In this document: one piece after another, positions 1 through 10,546 of the stretch
How positions within the stretch are numbered: position 1 is the stretch's first letter
Layout: each line of letters opens with the position of its first letter
DNA from: an uncultured Acidobacteriota bacterium
Lineage (GTDB): Bacteria > Acidobacteriota > Vicinamibacteria > Vicinamibacterales > 2-12-FULL-66-21
Length of the DNA stretch: 64,000 bases
Assembly (NCBI GenBank): GCA_963697775.1
Contig: CAVOPH010000016.1
Coordinates: 25,190-89,189 of the forward strand
Direction: 5' to 3'
Made by a program: the position numbers and the translations under genes
Notes under the pieces: generated by a model
What the model was told of the DNA's origin: nothing
The model's input: only the letters and a program-made list of their open reading frames with translations
The model's database searches: none

Positions 1-624
1 GTCCTGCAACGATCGAACGACGCGGTCGTCGCCCGCCGCTTGCGCGGTGGCGAGACTCTTTCGCAGCTCTTCGAGCCGCCCGGAAATCTCCTGCCCGTCC
101 ATCGTCTTCAGAAATCGATCGAGCGCGGTTTTCGACAGCAGCAGGCGCAGGAACAGCCAGAGCAGACGATCGAGCCCCGGCGTGCGAATGTCTTCCGCCG
201 CGCCTGCCTGATTGCCAGCGGCGCCTCGCACGCCGGCGGCGATTCCTCGCATCTCGAGGCAGCGCCCATGCAATCGCTCGAACCGCGTACGAGCCTCCGA
301 GGGCAATCCGTTCAGCATCGTGACGAGCGACACCGCGGGCACGGCGGCAGCATCCCCAGGACCGAATCCCCGCTGCGCGTGCAGCTTGGCGTCGATTGCG
401 GCCCGGAATCGAGGCATCGAGATCAGGCCGGTGAGATACGCGAGCTCCCCCGCGCCGACGAGCGGCAGCAGGACCGGCGCGAGCGGTGTCAATGCGGCAG
501 CGGCCGTACCGCCGAGAAAGAACAGGAGATTCCACCGGAACAGGAACGCTTCCTTGAGATAGTCCTTGGTGTCTGCACTTCGTGGCGGCACGTTCGGCGG
601 CGGACTGTCAGGCAGCTTAATCAT
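1..624 (-). CDS. Hypothetical protein with N-terminal hydrophobic segments and a helical/coiled-coil body; runs off the window edge
   Basis: Not in the ORF track. My translation from the ATG at 624, which overlaps the ABC ATPase stop: MIKLPDSPPNVPPRSADTKDYLKEAFLFRWNLLFFLGGTAAAALTPLAPVLLPLVGAGELAYLTGLISMPRFRAAIDAK...GLDRLLWLFLRLLLSKTALDRFL..., open to position 1. Confidence 0.8.
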   Translation of the reverse strand, partial: MIKLPDSPPPNVPPRSADTKDYLKEAFLFRWNLLFFLGGTAAAALTPLAPVLLPLVGAGELAYLTGLISMPRFRAAIDAKLHAQRGFGPGDAAAVPAVSLVTMLNGLPSEARTRFERLHGRCLEMRGIAAGVRGAAGNQAGAAEDIRTPGLDRLLWLFLRLLLSKTALDRFLKTMDGQEISGRLEELRKSLATAQAAGDDRVVRSLQD

Positions 625-1447
625 CGCCAGCCCGGTTGGAGGCGGACAGGTTGTCGATGATGTCGCGGATCTCGAAGACGTACTTCATGAACTCCGGCTC
701 GCGCTGCATCACCTTGGGCGGCCGGTCTGGCGGCGGGACCTCCATCTGCCGAAGAATCGTGCCGGGCGCCGACGAGAAGACATAGACGCGGTCTCCCAGG
801 TACACCGCCTCCTCGATCGAGTGGGTCACAAAGAAGACCGTCGCCTGCGCTTCGCGCCACAGATCGACGAGCAGCGCCTGCATGTGCAGCCGGGTCGTCG
901 GATCGAGGGCCCCGAAGGGTTCGTCCATGAGAATGATGCGCGGCGACAGGATCAGCGTCCGGGCAATTGCGACGCGCTGCCGCATGCCGCCCGAGAGCTC
1001 GCTCGGATACTTGGTCGCGTCGCGCTTGACGTCGAGCCCCACCTTCCCGATCCACTCGCGCGCGCGTTCGCGGCGCTCCGCCGCCGCGACGCCGCGGCAT
1101 TCCAACCCGAACGCCACATTATCTTCGACCGTGCGATTGTCGAACGAGGTGTAGTCCTGGAAGACCATGCTGCGATCGGCGCCCGGGCATTCCACGCGGT
1201 TGCCCGCGACGAGCACGGTTCCCTCGGTCGGCGGATGATGCGGCCGAAGCCCGGCAATCAGACGAAGCACGGTCGATTTCCCGCAGCCTGAGGGGCCGAG
1301 GATCGCGATGAACTCGCCTTTGTGCGGCAGGTCCGGCACCGAGAACGTGATGTCGCGGACGATCGTCACGCTGCCGAATCGCTTCGTGACGTTCTTGAAC
1401 TCGACAACGTTGCCAGGTGCGGCCGGCGCGGCCTCGGGATCGGTCAC
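617..1447 (-). CDS. ABC transporter ATP-binding protein, NitT/TauT (SsuB/TauB-like)
   Basis: Walker A GPSGCGKS, signature LSGGMRQR, Walker B ILMDEPF, H-loop VTHS. Confidence 0.95.
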   Translation of the reverse strand: MTDPEAAPAAPGNVVEFKNVTKRFGSVTIVRDITFSVPDLPHKGEFIAILGPSGCGKSTVLRLIAGLRPHHPPTEGTVLVAGNRVECPGADRSMVFQDYTSFDNRTVEDNVAFGLECRGVAAAERRERAREWIGKVGLDVKRDATKYPSELSGGMRQRVAIARTLILSPRIILMDEPFGALDPTTRLHMQALLVDLWREAQATVFFVTHSIEEAVYLGDRVYVFSSAPGTILRQMEVPPPDRPPKVMQREPEFMKYVFEIRDIIDNLSASNRAGDD

Positions 1448-1449
1448 CG

Positions 1450-2271
1450 TCAGTCCTCAACCGAACGATAAGGAAACAGCCCGCGCTGGAACCAGAAGAG
1501 CACGCGGTCGATGCCATACGCGAGCACGCCGATGATCATCAGGATCAGGATGATGTGCTCGGACATGCCGCGCCGCTGGCTCGCCATCAGGAGATATCCG
1601 AGCCCGTGCTCGGCGTTGATCAGCTCGGCGAGCATGATATAGCCGAAGGCCAGCCCGAACAGGTGTCGCAGGCTGTTGTAGATATCGGGAAGCGCGAGCG
1701 TGACGAGCACCTTCAGCACGACCTGGTGCGTCTTGGCGCCAAGCGTTTGCGCGGTTTCGACGTACCGATCCGGGACGCCGACGACCGCAGCGACCGCGTC
1801 CGAGTACACGAACGGCACGCAGGCGATGAAGATAAACATCACCTTCTGCGTTTCGTCGATGCCAAACCAGAGAATCGTCAGCGGGATGAGCGCGGCAACG
1901 GGCAGATTGCGTCCAAAGAGCGCAATCGGCGCACCGGCTGCTTCAATCACCCGCCACGCGCCAGCGGCAATGCCGAGCGGCACGCCGACGAGAACCGCCA
2001 GGCCGAATCCCACCAGCACGCGTTTCAGCGTCGCGGCAATGCTCTGCAGGAGCGCGCGTTCCCTGAACAGGCTCGGAAAGCTTCGGATCACTTCGCCGGG
2101 ACTCGGCAGAATCACTGGCGAGATCCAGCGATCCTCGGATCCCAGTCCTGACGTCGCGATCCACCACAGCAACACGATGACGCCGACGGCCAGTACGCCG
2201 ACGAGCCGCCGCGTCATTCGTGGCGGCGAGATGCGGAGCGCCAGGAGCTCCGGTTTGGCGTCGCCCGGCAT
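1450..2271 (-). CDS. ABC transporter permease, NitT/TauT (SsuC-like)
   Basis: Multiple TM segments, ILPSP motif, EAA-like loop YVETAQTLGA, AELI...GLGYL. Confidence 0.93.
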   Translation of the reverse strand: MPGDAKPELLALRISPPRMTRRLVGVLAVGVIVLLWWIATSGLGSEDRWISPVILPSPGEVIRSFPSLFRERALLQSIAATLKRVLVGFGLAVLVGVPLGIAAGAWRVIEAAGAPIALFGRNLPVAALIPLTILWFGIDETQKVMFIFIACVPFVYSDAVAAVVGVPDRYVETAQTLGAKTHQVVLKVLVTLALPDIYNSLRHLFGLAFGYIMLAELINAEHGLGYLLMASQRRGMSEHIILILMIIGVLAYGIDRVLFWFQRGLFPYRSVED

Positions 2272-4002
2272 TTACTTCGCGCCCGGCGCGGCTTCCGCCG
2301 GATACACCTTCACCTCGACGCGCCGGTTCTTGGCGCTGTTCTCGGGATCGGACGGATCGGCCGGACGATCCCATCCCAGACCGGCGGTGGAGAACTGATT
2401 CGGTTGCAGCGACGGGAACTTCCGCACAATCGCTTCCTTCACCGAATTGGCGCGATTCAACGACAGCTCCTGGACCAGGCTCTTCGGCACCGACGCTTTC
2501 ATCGACGCATCGGTGTGTCCTTCGATGACGATCCGCGCGGCGCCGTACTGGCCCGCCAGCTTGCCGATTTCCTCGACGACGAATCCGACGTTCGGGTCGT
2601 AGAGCTCTTCGGCGTCCTTGCCGCCGGAGTCGCGCGTGACCTTCTTGTTGAGATCCCACGAGTTCGGGAAGAAATGGATCACGACCGTCTTGGTCAGGAT
2701 CTCGTCCTTCTCGCCTTGCACGGTTCCGGCTGACGCCGGCGCGAAGTGGACGTCGTACTCGTTCTTCTGCGACGCGAATTTCGGCTCGGACGCGAGCTTC
2801 TGGATGATGGAGAAGTCCATCACCTGATCGAACGGCGTCTGCTCGGTGACCGCGTTGATCCGCTTGTAGAGGAAGTACGCGGTGGACCAGGTGCGCTCGA
2901 AACTCGTCGGGTTGTTCTGGTTCAGGAAGAAGTCGCGATTCTCGGCGTAGTTGGTCGAGTGCGCGTCGCCGAGCATCCCGAGCGCGTCTCCCTCAGGAAT
3001 CGAATAGCCCGCTGCCATCAGCTTCGCGACCTTCTGCTTCGACTCCTGCGACTTCAGATCGACCATCGCGTCGAAGATGCCGCGCGTGATCCCCTCCATG
3101 ATGTCGGGATTGTCCTTCGCGAAGTCGGCGCGCGCGAACCAGACGTCCGCGATCAGCTTGTTCGCCGTCGCGGTCGTCACCAGCATGTGATTGCCCTTGA
3201 CCTTCTCGAGGTTGTAGATGTCGGGCGCCCAGCTGACCACACCGGCAAGGCTCTTGTCGGCATTGAACGCGGCGGCCGCCTGGAAGGCGTCCTGCGTGAA
3301 CTTGAACTGGACTTCTGCCGGCTGAACGCCCGCGTTGATGAGCGCGTTCAGGATGAAGAAGTGCGACGGCGAGTTCTGCGCCAGCACGACGGTCTTGCCG
3401 CGCAAATCGGCCATCGTCTTGATCGCGTCGCGGACAACGATGCCGTCGCCGCCGTTCGACCAGTCGACCTGCTGATAGACGCGCGGCATGACGCGCGAGT
3501 CCTTGCGCAGTCCTTCGAGAAAGAGCGGGATCATGTCGAGCGTCGCCCAGCCGATGTGCAGGTTGCCGGCCGCGTACGCATCGCGCATCACGATCGGATC
3601 GTCACTCAGCACGAGTTCGACCTTGAAGTCCTTGCCGCCGGGCGTCTTCCACAGCTTTCCGGGTTTGAAGCCGTTGTTCGCGAGAATGATCGGGCTCCAG
3701 CCGGCCCACACGTTGATGCCGAAACGCACCGTGCGGTCGGCCATCGGCTTGTAGCTGGAGATGCCCTTGACCTCCGGCAGCCGTGTCGCCGCGACGTAGT
3801 TGTATTCCTTGACCGTGGTGATGCCGGCGCTGTCCGGCGCTTCCGCGCCGGTCTGCATCTTCTTCAGCTCGTCGGCCGAGAATTGACCCGTCTGCGACTT
3901 CGGTCCGATCGCGCCGTATCGCCACAGCGCGAGGCCGACGAGACCGAGCACCATCAGCAGGACGGCGACGTAAAAAGCAGGTCGGGGCTTTCCGTTGGCC
4001 AT
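2272..4002 (-). CDS. Membrane-anchored NMT1/SsuA-type solute-binding protein fused to a C-terminal OmpA-like peptidoglycan-binding domain
   Basis: N-terminal TM; SBP motifs (DWSNGGDGIV, DLRGKTV, SPSHFF); C-terminal IEGHTD...LSLNRANSV...NRRVEV. Confidence 0.88.
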   Translation of the reverse strand: MANGKPRPAFYVAVLLMVLGLVGLALWRYGAIGPKSQTGQFSADELKKMQTGAEAPDSAGITTVKEYNYVAATRLPEVKGISSYKPMADRTVRFGINVWAGWSPIILANNGFKPGKLWKTPGGKDFKVELVLSDDPIVMRDAYAAGNLHIGWATLDMIPLFLEGLRKDSRVMPRVYQQVDWSNGGDGIVVRDAIKTMADLRGKTVVLAQNSPSHFFILNALINAGVQPAEVQFKFTQDAFQAAAAFNADKSLAGVVSWAPDIYNLEKVKGNHMLVTTATANKLIADVWFARADFAKDNPDIMEGITRGIFDAMVDLKSQESKQKVAKLMAAGYSIPEGDALGMLGDAHSTNYAENRDFFLNQNNPTSFERTWSTAYFLYKRINAVTEQTPFDQVMDFSIIQKLASEPKFASQKNEYDVHFAPASAGTVQGEKDEILTKTVVIHFFPNSWDLNKKVTRDSGGKDAEELYDPNVGFVVEEIGKLAGQYGAARIVIEGHTDASMKASVPKSLVQELSLNRANSVKEAIVRKFPSLQPNQFSTAGLGWDRPADPSDPENSAKNRRVEVKVYPAEAAPGAK

Positions 4003-4055
4003 GAATCAATGCTCCTGTCAGCAGCCCATTGAAGGCTGCACTACACTTCTCTTAT

Positions 4056-4210
4056 CCGAAGGGTTTCGCCCCTCGGAGTCCCCCTCTCGCGCGCCGCTTC
4101 GCCGGTTCGCTCCGTTTCCGCCTCCGCCAAGGCTACGGCGAGACCGCGCCGAAGCGCCTTCGGCGCGAAGGCGGGCGCGTGGCTCGCTTCGCTGCGCTCG
4201 CTCGCGCTGC
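4056..4210. repeat. Composite palindromic REP-like intergenic element
   Basis: Hairpins CCGAAGGG-tttc-GCCCCTCGG and GCCGAAGCGCCTTCGGCGCGAAGGCGG (4148-4174) plus TCGC-rich tracts, inside an operon spacer. Confidence 0.65.
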
Positions 4211-4225
4211 CGAGTCCGTCTCGGT

Positions 4226-4984
4226 TTAATTCGTCTGTTTCTCGGTGGCTTTTTCGGCCGCGGGTCCGAGGTCCTTGGCCGTCTGGGCCATCGGTGACGT
4301 CTCGGGAGACTTCAACCCCAGTTCGACCTCGAAATCGGTGAGCGCCTGTTCCGCGAGCTGGCCTTGCATCCGCTCCTCTGCCTGGATTTCGGCGATGCCC
4401 TTCGACGAGAGGTCGGCAGCGACGCGGACCTTGCCGCGGTTCTGATCGATCTTCTGCTGGATCACGCTTTCGATCTCGCCGAAGTCCGTCGTCAGGTTCA
4501 TCTCGAACGTTTCAGACAGCTTGGCGATCTCGGCCTCGGCCGAGCTCATCTTCAGCTCGGCGTCGTACTTCTGGATTTTTTCGCGCAGCTCGATCAGCTT
4601 TTCGTTGGCGTGTTGAATCTTCTTCAGGTTGTTGCCGTAGGCGGTCTCGTGCATCTGCAGCTGGCCCTCGTTGGCCGCCATCTCCGTCTTGGCTTTCTGC
4701 AGCTCCAGCGCGAACTTTGACGCGGTCGCGCGATCGCCGGCCTTGAGATAGGCCTTGGTTTCCGCCTCGAGCTTCTGCACGTGTGACCGGTTGGCGGACA
4801 CCTGCCGGTTCACGCGCTCGACCAGGCCGCGATACTGTTCAAGCCCTGAACGGCCTTCCTTGAGCTGTTCGACGGCACGGTCGTATTCGTAGCGCATCTG
4901 GGCCACGGGATCGGCCTCCCAGAAGATGTTCGCCACCTTGTTTATCTGCGCGACGAACGCCGACCAGAACTTGTGGAAAATCAC
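4226..4984 (-). CDS. PspA/IM30 (ESCRT-III-like) family protein
   Basis: Amphipathic N-terminus (FHKFWSAFVAQINKV), EADP motif, KAYLKAGDRATASKFA hairpin, all-helical coiled coil, 252 aa. Confidence 0.82.
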   Translation of the reverse strand: MIFHKFWSAFVAQINKVANIFWEADPVAQMRYEYDRAVEQLKEGRSGLEQYRGLVERVNRQVSANRSHVQKLEAETKAYLKAGDRATASKFALELQKAKTEMAANEGQLQMHETAYGNNLKKIQHANEKLIELREKIQKYDAELKMSSAEAEIAKLSETFEMNLTTDFGEIESVIQQKIDQNRGKVRVAADLSSKGIAEIQAEERMQGQLAEQALTDFEVELGLKSPETSPMAQTAKDLGPAAEKATEKQTN

Positions 4985-5010
4985 GGGGGCTCCTTCTAAA
5001 AATCTACGAG

Positions 5011-5790
5011 TTACTTCCTGGCAGGTTCCCGTTCGCCGCCGACCGCCTCGGCGAGGATCTTGCCCTGGTAAATACCGTCGAGTGCCGTGCGCAGCTCGGC
5101 GCCGGTTCCGGCGCCGATGACGTCTCCGCCGGCGTCCTTGAGGAATGCAAACTTTTCCGGGCTCGTATCGAACGCGACGAAGTAGGTTTGCACGCCTCCT
5201 TCGCTCCGCCGCCAGATGTCTCGCGCGACATCGTCGGGGCTGCGTCCATTCGTGTTGTCGCCATCGGTGACGACCAGGAGGTACTTACGGAACACGCCGG
5301 CGCGATAGAGATCTGGCCGCGCCTCTCGCATCGCATCGCCGATGGCGGTGCCTCCGCCCGGACGCGGCAGGCTCGCCAGCGTCGCTCGAACCGCGGCGCG
5401 ATCGTACGGCTGGATCGGCCGCAGGACGTGGACGCTGCTGGCAAAACTGTAAACGCCAATCTTGATCGGAAAATCGGGTCGCTTGGCCACGAACGCGTCG
5501 GTGGCGTCGAGCATCGCCTCGAGCGCTTCCTGGGCGACGACGTATTTTGGGCGCGAGTCGCCGGGCGCATCCTGCTTCATCGAGCCCGACGTGTCCACGA
5601 GGATCGCGACCGCGGCCCCCAAACCCTCCTCGACTTCGGCTTGATAGGGAGCGTCGGACTCGGGAGCCTCCTTGGCGGACCTGGACCGGTCGCGGTGCGC
5701 GCTCGGCTGGCACGCAAGAACAACAACCGACGGGAGGAGAACGGCAAGAGCCAATTCTCGGATTCGTCGCGCGACAGAGCGGCTGCCCAT
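5011..5790 (-). CDS. von Willebrand factor A domain lipoprotein
   Basis: MIDAS motif DTSGSM, GGTAIG, VVTDG; lipobox-like VVLAC; start taken as the ATG at 5790. Confidence 0.85.
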   Translation of the reverse strand: MGSRSVARRIRELALAVLLPSVVVLACQPSAHRDRSRSAKEAPESDAPYQAEVEEGLGAAVAILVDTSGSMKQDAPGDSRPKYVVAQEALEAMLDATDAFVAKRPDFPIKIGVYSFASSVHVLRPIQPYDRAAVRATLASLPRPGGGTAIGDAMREARPDLYRAGVFRKYLLVVTDGDNTNGRSPDDVARDIWRRSEGGVQTYFVAFDTSPEKFAFLKDAGGDVIGAGTGAELRTALDGIYQGKILAEAVGGEREPARK

Positions 5791-5877
5791 TCCCGGTGAG
5801 GGGGAGTTTATCGTCCGCCGTCCGGCGCGATCAAGCACAGGTAGCGATCCTGGCGAGGCTTCGCCGTTCCGTCTCAT

Positions 5878-6330
5878 TCAGGCCTTCGATGGGCGCAGAT
5901 CAGACGTGCAATGGGGACACCTGGCCGCCTTGGTCGAGATGCGCGAGACGCAGAACGGGCAATCGCGCGCGTCGTCGGTCGGCGGCGTCGGCGCCGGTGT
6001 TTTCAGCCGGTTGATCTGCCGCACCAGGAGAAAAATGACGAACGCGACGATCAAGAACTCCAGCACCGTGTTGAGAAAGACGCCGTAGTTGATCGTTGGA
6101 GCGCCCGCTTTTTGCGCATCGGCCACCGACGCGTACTGTTGCCCGTTGAGCGCGACGAACAGGTTCTTGAAATCAATCCGCCCGATGACCATCCCGATCG
6201 GCGGCATCACGATATCGTTGACAAGCGAGCTGACGATCTTGCCGAAGGCGGCGCCGATGATGACGCCGACCGCGAGGTCCACCACGTTGCCGCGCGCCGC
6301 GAACTCCCGGAACTCTTTCATCATGGACAT
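5878..6330 (-). CDS. mscL: Large-conductance mechanosensitive channel with C-terminal CxxC..CxxC tail
   Basis: [48 protein letters not shown]; tail CPFC...CPHC. Confidence 0.96.
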
Positions 6331-6350
6331 CGTGAGAGTCCTTCGATTGT

Positions 6351-6380
6351 AGTTTCCAGTTTCCAGTTTCCAGCTTCCAG
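6351..6380. repeat. Heptamer tandem repeat (TTCCAG[T/C])
   Basis: agtttccagtttccagtttccagcttccag. Confidence 0.7.
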
Positions 6381-6473
6381 ATCAAAGCGGTGAATGGTGT
6401 CTGCCGCTCGGTGAATCGCGAATCGCCGCGGTGTCTGCTTTTCTCACTTGCCAGCAGCCAGCAGCCAAAGACA

Positions 6474-7613
6474 CTACTTCTTATAACTGACCCGATAAAT
6501 CACACCGGCGAAATCATCCGAGACGAGCAGCGCGCCGTCGGGCATCACGAACACGTCGGCCGGGCGTCCCCAGGTCTGTCCTGTGGTCTGTGTGCCCCGT
6601 GTGGAGGCCACGCCCTGCAACCATCCTTCCGCGAACGGCGTGAAGCTCGTCACCGTGTTGCCTTGAAGCTTCGCGACCATGACGCGGTATCCGATTGGCA
6701 CGGACCGATTCCACGAGCCATGCTCCGCGATGAAGATCTGGTTTCGATACTCCGCCGGGAACATCGTGCCGGTGTAGAACCGCATCCCGATCGCGGCCCC
6801 GTGCGGATCGAGTTTGCGCGCCGGCGCCTGGAACTCGCTGCACGCGTGCTTGTCGCCGAACTCGGGATCCTTGACCTCTCCCGCATGACAGTAGGGGAAA
6901 CCAAACGCGAGCCCTCTTTTTGGTGCGTGATTCAGCTCGTCTGGCGGAATGTCGTCGCCAAGGAGATCGCGTCCGTTGTCGGTGAACCACATCTCGTGTG
7001 TCGTGGGGTGCCAGTCGAACCCCACGCTGTTGCGGACGCCGCTCGCGAAAATCTCGCTTCCACTTCCGTCCGGCTTCATCCGGAGGATCGTCGCGAACCG
7101 GGAATCGTCGGGACGCTCGCACACATTGCAGGGACCGCCGACCGGCACGTAGAGCAGGCCATCGGGTCCGAAGCGAATGAACTTCTGGCCGTGATGCGAT
7201 TCGGTCGGCAAATCGCTCTTGACGACCACGGGCGCAGGCGGCTTCTCGAGATTCGCTTCGATATTGTCGTATCGGGTGATCCGGCTGATCTCGGCCACGT
7301 AGAGCGAACCGTCACGGAACGCGACGCCGCTGGGATCCTTGAGGCCTTCAGCGATGGTGTAGACCTGGTCGGCCTTCTGATCCTGATCGCGATCGACGAT
7401 CGCGTACACCTTGTTGAAATCGCGGCTGCCGACAAACAGCGTGCCCTTCGCACCCATGACCATTTCGCGTGCGTGCGGCACGCCGGTGGCGTACAGAGCA
7501 ATGCTGAACCCTGGCGGCAGCTTGATCTGATCGAGCGGCAGCGACGCGGGCGCCTGCGCGGTCCACGCCGTGACGATGGCAGCGGCGGCCGTGGGGAGCA
7601 GCAGCCTGTACAT
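6474..7613 (-). CDS. Secreted PQQ-dependent glucose/sorbosone dehydrogenase family beta-propeller
   Basis: Signal peptide; LPPGFSI, FGPDGLLYV, GVRNSVGFDW, TDNGRD, HGSWNR, GRPADV motifs. Confidence 0.9.
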   Translation of the reverse strand: MYRLLLPTAAAAIVTAWTAQAPASLPLDQIKLPPGFSIALYATGVPHAREMVMGAKGTLFVGSRDFNKVYAIVDRDQDQKADQVYTIAEGLKDPSGVAFRDGSLYVAEISRITRYDNIEANLEKPPAPVVVKSDLPTESHHGQKFIRFGPDGLLYVPVGGPCNVCERPDDSRFATILRMKPDGSGSEIFASGVRNSVGFDWHPTTHEMWFTDNGRDLLGDDIPPDELNHAPKRGLAFGFPYCHAGEVKDPEFGDKHACSEFQAPARKLDPHGAAIGMRFYTGTMFPAEYRNQIFIAEHGSWNRSVPIGYRVMVAKLQGNTVTSFTPFAEGWLQGVASTRGTQTTGQTWGRPADVFVMPDGALLVSDDFAGVIYRVSYKK

Positions 7614-7683
7614 ATAAGGAGGAGCATAGTCGATCGGCAGTTTGGGGAGGATTTCAGCGGCAGATGTTAAATTTTTCGCTTTA

Positions 7684-7699
7684 TGCTATTTTCATAGCA
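7684..7699. promoter_or_regulatory. Candidate BlaI-family operator palindrome TGCTAT-N4-ATAGCA
   Basis: Perfect 6-bp inverted repeat in the AT-rich stretch upstream of the BlaI-like gene. Confidence 0.5.
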
Positions 7700-7815
7700 C
7701 CTTTTGCCGTTCATCACCGTCCAATGCCCTAGAACGCAGGTTTGAACGGACCATGGACGGAGCGATTGCACCAATGACGAGACAACCTCTTCCGCCCGTA
7801 GGCGGAGTCCAGAGA

Positions 7816-8193
7816 ATGAGTTACGACCTTAGCCGGCGCGAACGTCAAATTATTGACATACTCTACGCGAACGGCCGGGCGACCGCGGCGGAGGTCCAGG
7901 CCGCCCTGCCCGACCCGCCGAGCTATTCGGCCGTCCGGGCGATGCTTCGGATTCTCGAGGACAAGGGGCACGTCCGGCACGAGCAGGATGGTCCCCGCTA
8001 CATTTATCTCCCGACGGTGGGACGTGACAACGCCAAGCGATCGGCGCTGCGCCACATGCTGAAAACCTTTTTCGACGGTTCCGCCGAACAGGCGATCTCG
8101 GCGCTCCTCGACGAGTCGTCGCAGAAACTGTCGGACGCGGAACTCGATCGTCTGGCGCGTCTGATCGATCAGGCACGGAACGCCGGAGCCTAG
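7816..8193 (+). CDS. BlaI/MecI/CopY family transcriptional repressor
   Basis: LSRRERQIIDILY, YSAVRAMLRILEDKGHV, FFDGS; directly upstream of an M56 gene. Confidence 0.93.
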   Translation: MSYDLSRRERQIIDILYANGRATAAEVQAALPDPPSYSAVRAMLRILEDKGHVRHEQDGPRYIYLPTVGRDNAKRSALRHMLKTFFDGSAEQAISALLDESSQKLSDAELDRLARLIDQARNAGA

Positions 8194-8195
8194 CC

Positions 8196-10546
8196 ATGAG
8201 CATTCTTCACTTTCTCTCGCTCGACTCCGAATCCTCGTGGATCCTCGTCGCCGACATCGTGCTCAAGGCGACGCTGCTGTTGGTCGCGGCCGGGGCCGCC
8301 GCCTTCGTGCTTCGCCGCGCATCCGCGGCGGCACGGCACATGGTCTGGACGCTCGCGCTCGCGGGTGTGCTCCTGCTGCCGATGCTCTCGATCGCGCTGC
8401 CTCGGTGGCAGGTGTCTTTGGTGACGATCGAAACGGCTGCCAGCTCCCAGCTTCCAGCTTCCAGCTTCGCGCTCTCAGCTCAGGATCGCGCGCCCAATTT
8501 CCAATTGCCCGTTTCCGGTTCGCAGCCAGCCTTCGCTCATAAGTCGTGCGAAGGCTGTCCCGCCGAAGCGGCCGTGGCCGCGAAGGCGGACCAGACCGGA
8601 TCCCGGATTGGTCAAGCCGCGACCAACATGTCTTGGTCCACGATGCTCCTGGCGATCTGGCTGAGTGGCGCGCTCTTGATCCTCGCGCGGCTCGCCGCCG
8701 GGATCGTCGCGGTCCGCTGGATGTCACGGCGCACTCAGCGGGTGACCGACGCGCCGTGGCTTCAGCAGGCCCGCGCGCTGGCCGAGTCGCTTGGAGTGTC
8801 TCCGCGGATCGTCTTCCTTCGCAGCAACAGTGCGACCATGCCGATGGCGTGGGGCATCCTGCGACCGGCCGTGTTGATGCCGTCAGAGGCGGATGAATGG
8901 CCGGCCGAGCGGCTGCGGATCGTGTTGCTCCACGAGCTGGCGCACGTCAAGCGGCGCGACTGCCTGACGCATGTGCTCGCGCAGATTTCGTGCGCGCTGC
9001 ACTGGTTCAATCCGCTGGCATGGATGGCCGCGCGGCACGTGCGCACCGAGCGCGAGCGCGCGTGCGACGACCTGGTGCTGGCCGCCGGAACACACGGGCC
9101 CGACTACGCCGATCAACTGATCGAGATTGCGCGCGTGATGCGCTCCGGCCGGTTCCCGGCGGTGCTCGCCGGTGCAAGCCTGGCGATGGCCCACCGGTCG
9201 GAACTCGAGGGCCGGCTGCTGGCCATCCTCGATCCGACCGTTCCGCGCGCGGGCCTGTCACGGGTGCGAGCGTTCGGAGCGACATCCGCCTTTGCGCTGG
9301 CGGTCATGCCCCTCGCGTCACTGCAACCGTGGACGGTCGTGCCTGCGCAGGATCAGCTGCCCGCGACTCAGATTCAGCAGAGCACGGCGTCTGCCCAGCA
9401 ACCGACGCCTGCCCCGACGCCGTCGCCCTCGCCTTCCGATTCAACCGAGAGGCGCGGACGTCGCGGTATCGAGCCACAAGCGCACGATGACACGGTGGAA
9501 TCAGCCATTCAGAGCGCGGTCCAGAGCGGAGTGCAGTCCCGAATCCAGAGCAGTGTGCAGTCCCGCGTTCAGAGTAGCGTCCAGAGCCAGGTCCAGAGTC
9601 AAGTGCAGAGCGGGATTCAGAGCGCCGTGCAGAGTGGCGTGGCGTCGAGCGTCGCCTCCGCGGTGACGACCGGCATGCATTCGTTGATGGGCCACGTCGG
9701 TCTCGACGCGGTGGTCGATTCGTCGCTCTGGAATATCGCGGCGCAGGCGGCTGACCACGGCGATAACGCGCACGCCGCGCGCCAGAGCAAAGCAGACCCC
9801 AGGACGGTGGCCGCGCTGACCGCCGCGCTCAAGGATAGCGGACAAGGACGTCCGCGAAACCGCGATGCACGCGCTCGTCCAGCTGCGCGATCCGAGCATC
9901 TTCGATCCGCTCGTCCAGGCGCTATCGGATGGCTCGCCTGACGTCCGGGAGCAGGCGGCGTTCGGGCTCGGGCAGCTCCGCGACCGGCGCGCGGTCGAAC
10001 CGTTGATCACCGCGCTGAAGGATCAAAACGCCGATGTACGTCAGCAGGCGGCATTCGCACTTGGGCAGATTCGCGACCGCAGTGCTGTGCCCGGGTTGAG
10101 CGCCGCGCTGAAAGACTCGAGCGACGACGTGCGCGAGCAGGCCGTGTTTGCGCTTGGACAGATTCGCGATCCCGGATCCGTAGACGCGCTGGTCGGCGCG
10201 GTGCACGACAGCAAGGCCGACGTCAGGCAGCAGGCGGTCTTCGCGCTCGGGCAGATCCGCGATCGGCGTGCCGTCGAACCGCTGATCTCGGCATTGAAGG
10301 ATACCGAGGGCCGACGTGCGCGAGCAGGCCGCATTCGCGCTCGGACAGATTCGCGATCCGCGCGCGGTCGAGCCGCTGGTGATTGCGCTCAAGGACAGCG
10401 TCTCCGACGTGCGTGAGCAGGCGGCGTTTGCGCTCGGGCAGATTCGCGACCCGCGCGCGATTGACGGCTTGACCTCGGCGCTCAAGGACTCGAGCGCCGA
10501 CGTCCGGCAGCAGGCCGCGTTCGCGCTCGGCCAGTTGGCGCGGTGA
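8196..10546 (+). CDS. BlaR1/M56 family metallopeptidase with a Q/S-rich linker and about 8 C-terminal HEAT (PBS-lyase-like) repeats; stitched across indels near 9840 and 10310
   Basis: HELAH zinc motif, HWFNPLAW, ERACDD, LEGRL; continues as DVREQAAFALGQIRD repeats in ORFs 9865-10416 and 10316-10546. Confidence 0.88.

Follow-up and report, generated by a model that had tools for sequence, protein, structure and literature searches.

A PspA operon with a membrane-anchored helical protein, an AAA+ ATPase and an OmpA-fused importer is conserved over several bacterial phyla

The stretch analysed here, hereafter the window, comprises 64,000 nucleotides of contig CAVOPH010000016.1 from an uncultured Acidobacteriota bacterium (GenBank assembly GCA_963697775.1, positions 25,190 to 89,189). 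The minus-strand genes at its positions 1-6330, read together with the flanking contig to the left of the window, include an operon that joins PspA, a member of the bacterial ESCRT-III superfamily, to an ATP-binding cassette (ABC) importer whose solute-binding protein carries an OmpA domain, to a membrane-anchored helical protein (below, the membrane protein) and to a two-domain AAA+ ATPase. This operon is a real cluster, conserved over several bacterial phyla, and with moderate confidence we read it as a module for envelope stress: the membrane protein would anchor PspA, the AAA+ ATPase would recycle the PspA polymer and the binding protein would act as a receptor giving a periplasmic cue. 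The layout was already published in silico in 2024; a von Willebrand factor A (vWA) lipoprotein and a ~96-amino-acid (aa) protein are members added here, and mscL is removed.

Conservation was assessed by scanning GTDB genomes with the binding protein, which confirmed 530 of at least 598 candidates; the best 80, leaning to close kin, were used, and dropping 34 loci with short flanks left a full-flank set of 46. The permease and the ABC ATPase are each present in 45 of these 46 loci, the membrane protein in 44, and PspA and the AAA+ ATPase in 43 each, followed by the ~96-aa protein (38/46) and the vWA gene (29/46). The core order is kept in related loci, where the initial annotation had allowed that it might prove unconserved. 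Titles of the best 80 loci span Acidobacteriota, Planctomycetota, Deltaproteobacteria/Myxococcales, Gemmatimonadota, Verrucomicrobiales, Nitrospiraceae and Lysobacterales, and a second order, PspA-AAA-small-(vWA)-binding protein-permease-ATPase-membrane protein, is found in planctomycetes among others. Of 60 relatives, the same 14 have both a close PspA and a close binding protein, neither being found without the other; within the genus the operon is carried by 12 of 25 genomes, and several near-complete genomes are devoid of both proteins. Pairwise distances among six operon proteins correlate at 0.90-0.97 over 52 loci, values that host kinship alone could yield.

The features of the locus are as follows.

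5878..6330, minus strand: mscL, 150 aa (PF01741 MscL, E 6.7e-43)
5011..5877, minus strand: vWA-domain predicted lipoprotein, optional member (PF13519 VWA_2, E 8e-13)
4226..4984, minus strand: PspA/IM30, bacterial ESCRT-III superfamily, 252 aa (PF04012 PspA_IM30, E 1.3e-9)
4003..4225, no strand: intergenic palindromic repeat, genome-wide and not operon-specific (138 blastn matches in the genome, up to 87 per position)
2272..4002, minus strand: solute-binding protein, NMT1 plus OmpA, 576 aa (NMT1 E 1.1e-6, OmpA E 5.9e-10)
1450..2271, minus strand: ABC permease, TauC/SsuC class, 273 aa (PF00528 BPD_transp_1, E 2.7e-15)
617..1447, minus strand: ABC ATPase, TauB/SsuB class, 276 aa (PF00005 ABC_tran, E 2.6e-29)
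1..624, minus strand: membrane-anchored helical protein, first 208 codons of 307 aa; the gene ends ~300 bases left of the window (L001 11701)
L001 9942-11711, outside the window, downstream: two-domain AAA+ ATPase, 589 aa (PF00004, E 4.5e-23, C-terminal half only)
L001 9541-9843, outside the window, downstream of the AAA+ gene: ~96-aa helical protein with a conserved ADG motif

Seven minus-strand open reading frames lie at the coordinates first reported for them, and six have a Pfam family, the exception being 1-624. Their description as co-oriented and mostly abutting holds for orientation, and for abutment only from the binding protein to the membrane protein, where successive gaps are 0, 2 and -8 bp; the membrane protein gene overlaps the ABC ATPase stop, and the start of the AAA+ gene in turn overlaps the membrane protein gene stop. 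By contrast, PspA stands 223 bp from the binding protein gene, with the genome-wide repeat between them, and for the vWA gene the likely start codon is at 5790, its lipobox cysteine following 27 codons later, so that ~87 bp remain after mscL. The window edge cuts the operon: the reading to the left of position 1 that the initial annotation had proposed completed the 1-624 frame to 307 aa and then revealed the AAA+ ATPase, the most informative partner, and the ~96-aa protein. Rfam gave nothing at the locus, including no riboswitch and no match for the repeat at 4003-4225, and promoter and terminator scans of the locus stayed at chance level. A search of viral contigs found none encoding this PspA, and a plasmid search with the membrane protein gave no match.

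Ravi et al. 2024 (PMC11237479) described PspA with a membrane-anchored 'divergent Snf7' protein and a two-domain AAA+ ATPase in operons with an ABC ATPase, a permease and a PBPB+OmpA protein, and proposed ATP-dependent membrane remodelling tied to solute transport. Their operon shares with that of the window PspA, the binding protein with OmpA, the permease, the ABC ATPase, the membrane helical protein and, in last place, the two-domain AAA+ ATPase with its inactive N-terminal copy; the row OGG56892.1 of their Table S3 lists the same six core genes in identical order. It differs in having neither the vWA lipoprotein nor the ~96-aa ADG protein by name, although unnamed X(s) genes may cover them; the term 'vWA' has 0 occurrences in the text and part 1/3 of the supplement. 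The Snf7 label, moreover, is not reproduced by a profile match for the 307-aa protein of the window, which is equated with the published 'TM+Snf7' protein by position and layout. The initial description of the module as uncharacterised accordingly stands as regards experiment, since no experimental study of this operon was found in the open-access literature, and falls as regards the layout, which PMC11237479 lists.

The identity of PspA is supported by a PF04012 score of 38.5 bits, above the cut-off of 33.9, so that the profile search gave no sign of the non-PspA coiled coil considered initially. Beyond the Pfam domain, its C-terminal tail is conserved (ExxxG..P..T...K.LG, alignment of 36) and would be a candidate handle for the AAA+ ATPase. 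Only one PspA was found in this genome, which is 67% complete. In E. coli PspFABC and B. subtilis LiaIH, according to a review, the PspA-family effector requires a membrane recruiter. The window's operon differs from both systems, as PspBC, PspF or Lia genes do not recur next to PspA in the loci compared, in line with their absence from the window as first annotated. A small PspC-domain gene lies on another contig (G000:C3:245157-245327, E 4.1e-20) and is a possible partner in trans.

The membrane protein is modelled by AlphaFold (predicted local distance difference test, pLDDT, 88.4) as a hydrophobic hairpin at residues 30-69 followed by long helices. No credible Pfam family was found in scans of 39 close members and of distant members, and Snf7 is absent from the Pfam lists, one of which shows 25 of 39 families. 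HHalign against PspA gave probabilities of 0.1% and 3.6%, a PDB sequence search returned nothing significant, and Foldseek found nothing at E 0.001, with CdvB2 at rank 2 (E 0.39). That the protein is a divergent ESCRT-III subunit which co-polymerises with PspA, forming with the AAA+ ATPase a two-subunit machine that buds or cuts membrane, overlaps the envelope-stress reading, claims more than it does and strikes us as improbable. The modelled helix layout (149-197, 200-251 and 254-282) fits an ESCRT-III core, and the weak match to CdvB2 is joined by structural realignments to Vipp1 (Z 8.4, root-mean-square deviation (rmsd) 5.7, 114 aligned) and CHMP3 (Z 6.9, rmsd 4.1, 130 aligned); both are tied, however, with unrelated helical bundles, and scores for ESCRT-III chains are level with those for VirB5, BAR domains and designed bundles. 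A wide structural search placed no ESCRT-III chain in the top 50, a result with which the fold is still compatible. The evidence thus neither confirms nor excludes the published 'Snf7' label.

The nearest named Atlas cluster to the membrane protein is Rv2743c/PspM (score 0.87, family on 40% of the cluster), which serves as a lead only. PF25587 (PspM) gave no match at the membrane protein gene in 6 genomes, with a model that stayed below its cut-off in 14 of 14 control genomes including Corynebacterium. The mycobacterial ClgR-PspA-PspM locus (Rv2744c/Rv2743c), for which an interplay of PspM with PspA is described (PMC13622631), resembles the present one in setting PspA beside a membrane-anchored helical protein of similar size, and such pairs occur here too; it differs in that the window's operon has no ClgR and has additional AAA+ and ABC genes.

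The AAA+ ATPase has a first domain with degenerate Walker motifs and an intact second domain, in which Walker A (GPVGTGKS), Walker B (DEAD), the pore loop (KYVG) and the arginine finger (KRQGR) are conserved across 26 sequences; its nearest solved relatives are Cdc48, VAT and Afg2. As in archaeal and eukaryotic ESCRT-III/Vps4 systems, an ESCRT-III-superfamily protein is here encoded with a classical-clade AAA+ ATPase whose pore loop is intact. Unlike single-domain Vps4, this ATPase has two domains, lacks MIT and Vps4_C domains in a Pfam scan and is nearer Cdc48/VAT in sequence. A Ser/Thr kinase gene directly precedes the AAA+ gene in several distant loci (L193:5384-8143, L221:13562-15622, L224, L230 and L241), which hints at phospho-regulation. 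For the ~96-aa protein no family was found, and a PDB sequence search returned nothing significant; TerB (PF05099) does not appear in the family listing for 27 of its members, which shows 25 of 31 families. In the slot after the AAA+ gene, where the window's operon has the ADG protein, L231 carries a TerB-family gene (L231:11123-11575, E 1.6e-6), and comparison of the two proteins gave only a 14-column ADG match (4.4%).

The binding protein consists of an N-terminal hydrophobic membrane anchor (residues 9-27), a TauA/SsuA/NMT1-class domain and a C-terminal OmpA-like domain; its AlphaFold model (pLDDT 76.8) best matches the fold of TauA (E 1.8e-17, ~20% identity). D498 and R517 of the OmpA domain, aligned to Omp38 3td3 and invariant in 40 sequences, are presumably residues of the peptidoglycan-binding site. 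W99, D156, W181, D186, W258 and D286 are likewise invariant in 40 close sequences, are mostly retained in distant ones and are inferred to sit in the ligand cleft. Because these conserved motifs are rich in Trp and Asp, the ligand may, tentatively, be small and rich in nitrogen, for instance a nucleobase, a nucleoside or a guanidinium-like cation. We take the model TIGR03427 to be linked to GimA. GimA binds guanidine (PMC12704784, whose text does not name that model), and guanidine stays a lead as ligand here, no riboswitch having been found at the locus.

All three importer subunits are complete at this locus with intact motifs, those of the ABC ATPase (Walker A, signature, Walker B, D-loop and H-loop) being read from the translation, and the importer probably still transports. 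Fold and motifs of the three subunits are as in TauABC, SsuABC and NMT1 importers, from which the set differs in falling below every listed NCBIfam cut-off (the permease below those of the TauC/SsuC-class models), in its low identity to TauA, and in the membrane anchor and OmpA fusion. The main rival to the envelope-stress reading, which we regard as possible if somewhat unlikely, is that the ABC set is an ordinary importer whose substrate is a small molecule with nitrogen or sulfur, and that it is expressed alongside an independent repair unit of PspA, anchor and AAA+ ATPase with no signalling between the two. It draws support from the intact ATPase and permease, from the TauA/SsuA fold, from the best NCBIfam model for the binding protein, a putative urea ABC binding protein (75 bits, where the cut-off is 334), from the occurrence of PspA-membrane protein-AAA+ sets without ABC genes, from the published link to solute transport, and from nucleoside-catabolism genes upstream in some relatives, namely cytidine deaminase and, in PMC11237479, the PYNP rows of Table S3. 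Set against these are the overlap of the membrane protein gene with the ATPase stop and its persistence with ABC sets that have no adjacent PspA; moreover, no catabolic gene recurs in the flanks of the 80 close loci, and Rfam detects no riboswitch.

A permease-less form of the operon also bears on this choice. In 11 of 20 hand-picked loci PspA and the membrane protein are accompanied by a ~390-aa binding protein that lacks OmpA, and two more of the same 20 keep an OmpA-type binding protein, likewise with no importer permease. The ABC genes near the permease-less loci belong with FtsX/MacB and DUF3352, as in the Archangium row AKJ06548.1 of Table S3, which matches this form; the hosts are for this reason taken to be probable myxobacteria. 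Since the binding protein keeps its place between the PspA and membrane protein genes even where the permease has been lost, these relatives appear to favour sensing over feeding and argue against an ordinary importer. The initial proposal that the ABC set may sense rather than feed thus gains indirect backing from relatives, and is tempered by the complete importer of the window. Cytidine deaminase genes lie upstream of PspA in the permease-less loci L212, L214, L218 and L219, with an amidohydrolase gene in L218; echoing the PYNP rows, they are a lead towards a nucleoside-like ligand.

Further variants were found in contexts of 20, 20 and 15 hand-picked loci, all seeded by the membrane protein. 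They comprise PspA-membrane protein pairs (L222 and L248-L250), trios of PspA, membrane protein and AAA+ ATPase without ABC genes (L204, L207, L209 and L254), lone membrane protein copies (L242 and L244) and full operons. In L206 a membrane protein homologue (HHalign 99.6%) follows a binding protein-vWA fusion. The membrane protein is thus the constant part of several sub-modules, which is new relative to the published description. Within the window's phylum its family was found in 35 of 301 genomes, and within that of L038 (probable myxobacteria, including the unpublished genome G518) in 110 of 201. L206:5496-9366 encodes the fusion, a second membrane-anchored protein and the homologue, whose subfamily has 434 matches. 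A ~215-250-aa helical protein of no family, not seen at the window's locus, lies beside PspA, the binding protein or the AAA+ ATPase in distant loci (L211:3906-4544, L210:7339-8019, L202, L204, L199, L252, L253, L255 and L256).

Several observations weigh against the envelope-stress reading. Seven sets of ABC genes and membrane protein have no adjacent PspA (L220, L223, L243, L245-L247 and L251), and the constancy of the membrane protein is partly built into the sampling, all variants having been found via searches with it. No Pfam or profile link was found between this protein and PspM, Snf7 or PspA, and in the probable myxobacteria the AAA+ gene is 7-8 kb off, with other genes between. The 11 permease-less loci are close kin rather than 11 events, and the DWSxGGDG motif of their receptors is altered to GRSRGQEA; these receptors could be degenerate or could borrow another TauC-like permease, one being encoded elsewhere in 9 of 10 genomes searched. 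In favour of the reading, the best such permease loci have a binding protein of their own in 9 of 9 fetched (8 by hidden Markov model, 1 by eye), a sample that covers only part of them. Finally, the window's locus itself has a complete importer with intact motifs, as plain uptake would have.

Among the genes upstream of PspA, the vWA gene travels with the operon in rearranged gene orders, and its moving with the operon in the second order therefore marks it as a true optional member. The lipobox Cys56 is present in at least 90% of 25 sequences, and the metal-ion-dependent adhesion site residues D95, S97, S99, T177 and D205 are invariant in the same number (n=25), giving a full DxSxS..T..D motif; the protein is likely a periplasmic, metal-dependent accessory. 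A MoxR-vWA chaperone was considered and rejected: the vWA protein is a predicted lipoprotein, and the AAA+ ATPase, a match to Cdc48-type proteins, is devoid of membrane and signal segments.

MscL, on the other hand, does not belong to the module as initially listed. Its gene is found in only 4 of the 46 full-flank loci, against 43-45 for core genes, all four being near kin with the entire flank in common with the window, and in none of the distant loci read; mscL is therefore a bystander, reflecting local synteny in part of one genus, and not a conserved member. We give hardly any credence to the idea that it is a true member of what would be an osmotic-shock module. It is indeed co-oriented and close, lying at most 1.4 kb from PspA in 6 of 14 operon-carrying relatives (on another contig in the other 8, some perhaps through assembly breaks); yet 22 of 25 genomes of the genus have it, among them 10 of the 13 that lack the operon, tallies that include the unpublished genome G321. 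The C-terminal tail of MscL beyond the Pfam domain (gene 5878-5970) carries CPFC...CPHC (CxxC..CxxC), likely a zinc ribbon.

Patchy presence in the genus and scattering over phyla, as in accessory cassettes, would also suit a defence against phages or competitors, one that detects a breached envelope and responds by sealing or depolarising the membrane. We consider this very unlikely: PADLOC found no complete anti-phage gene set, with generic domain matches only (IetA-type AAA, ZorB-type OmpA), no effector or toxin domain was found, defence genes do not recur in the flanks, and the membrane protein family is widespread in another phylum (the 110 of 201 genomes above).

Ter-type neighbourhoods combine vWA, solute-binding and TelA-XpaC genes. 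The loose likeness to them that was first remarked on is borne out in one case, the binding protein-vWA fusion of L206 before the membrane protein homologue, to which the TerB gene after the AAA+ gene of L231 may be compared; it is otherwise limited, as the vWA protein of the window is a separate lipoprotein, no TelA was found in the genome (at 67% completeness) and no XpaC is in the Pfam lists. OmpA and vWA are absent from the available part of the main text of Popp et al. 2022 (PMC9239133).

From gene content, gene order, co-inheritance, intact motifs and modular variants we infer the physical contacts and the direction of signalling in the envelope-stress module as follows. PspA would be held at the inner membrane by the membrane protein, whose role would resemble that of mycobacterial PspM; the AAA+ ATPase would dismantle PspA polymers; and the periplasmic cue would come from the receptor, its N-terminal anchor contacting the membrane protein and its OmpA domain holding peptidoglycan, with transport probably retained at this locus. 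A bolder version, which we think rather unlikely, is an ESCRT-like machine with an outside-in trigger: the wall-tethered receptor would signal to an ESCRT-III-like membrane protein that nucleates PspA, the Cdc48-like ATPase would disassemble the polymer in the manner of Vps4, and the probable-myxobacterial receptor, its transporter lost, would be a pure sensor.

Other elements of the surroundings were also read. A second intergenic repeat family occupies 6331-6473 (120 blastn matches in the genome), and a glucose/sorbosone dehydrogenase-family gene at 6474-7613 (minus strand) stays beside mscL only in the four nearest loci. At 7642-9941 (plus strand) is an apparent pair that we take to be a BlaI-type repressor and a BlaR1/M56-type membrane peptidase with a HELAH motif. 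On the other side, 4-7 kb past the operon end, lie a frameshifted sigma-54 activator, recognised from motifs (L001 2494-3827, minus strand), and a Band-7 protein (PF01145; L001 4229-5791, plus strand), neither of which is a recurrent neighbour.

In summary, as the layout was published in 2024, the value of this operon lies in a testable question rather than in discovery, and the presence of the membrane protein family in more than half of the genomes of the probable-myxobacterial phylum suggests that a culturable host of the three-gene form likely exists. A 2025 review (PMC7619361) states that a Vps4-like ATPase seems to be absent in bacteria and leaves open how PspA polymers are regulated. 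The AAA+ ATPase and PspA of this operon would be a candidate motor-substrate pair for how bacterial ESCRT-III polymers are disassembled without Vps4.

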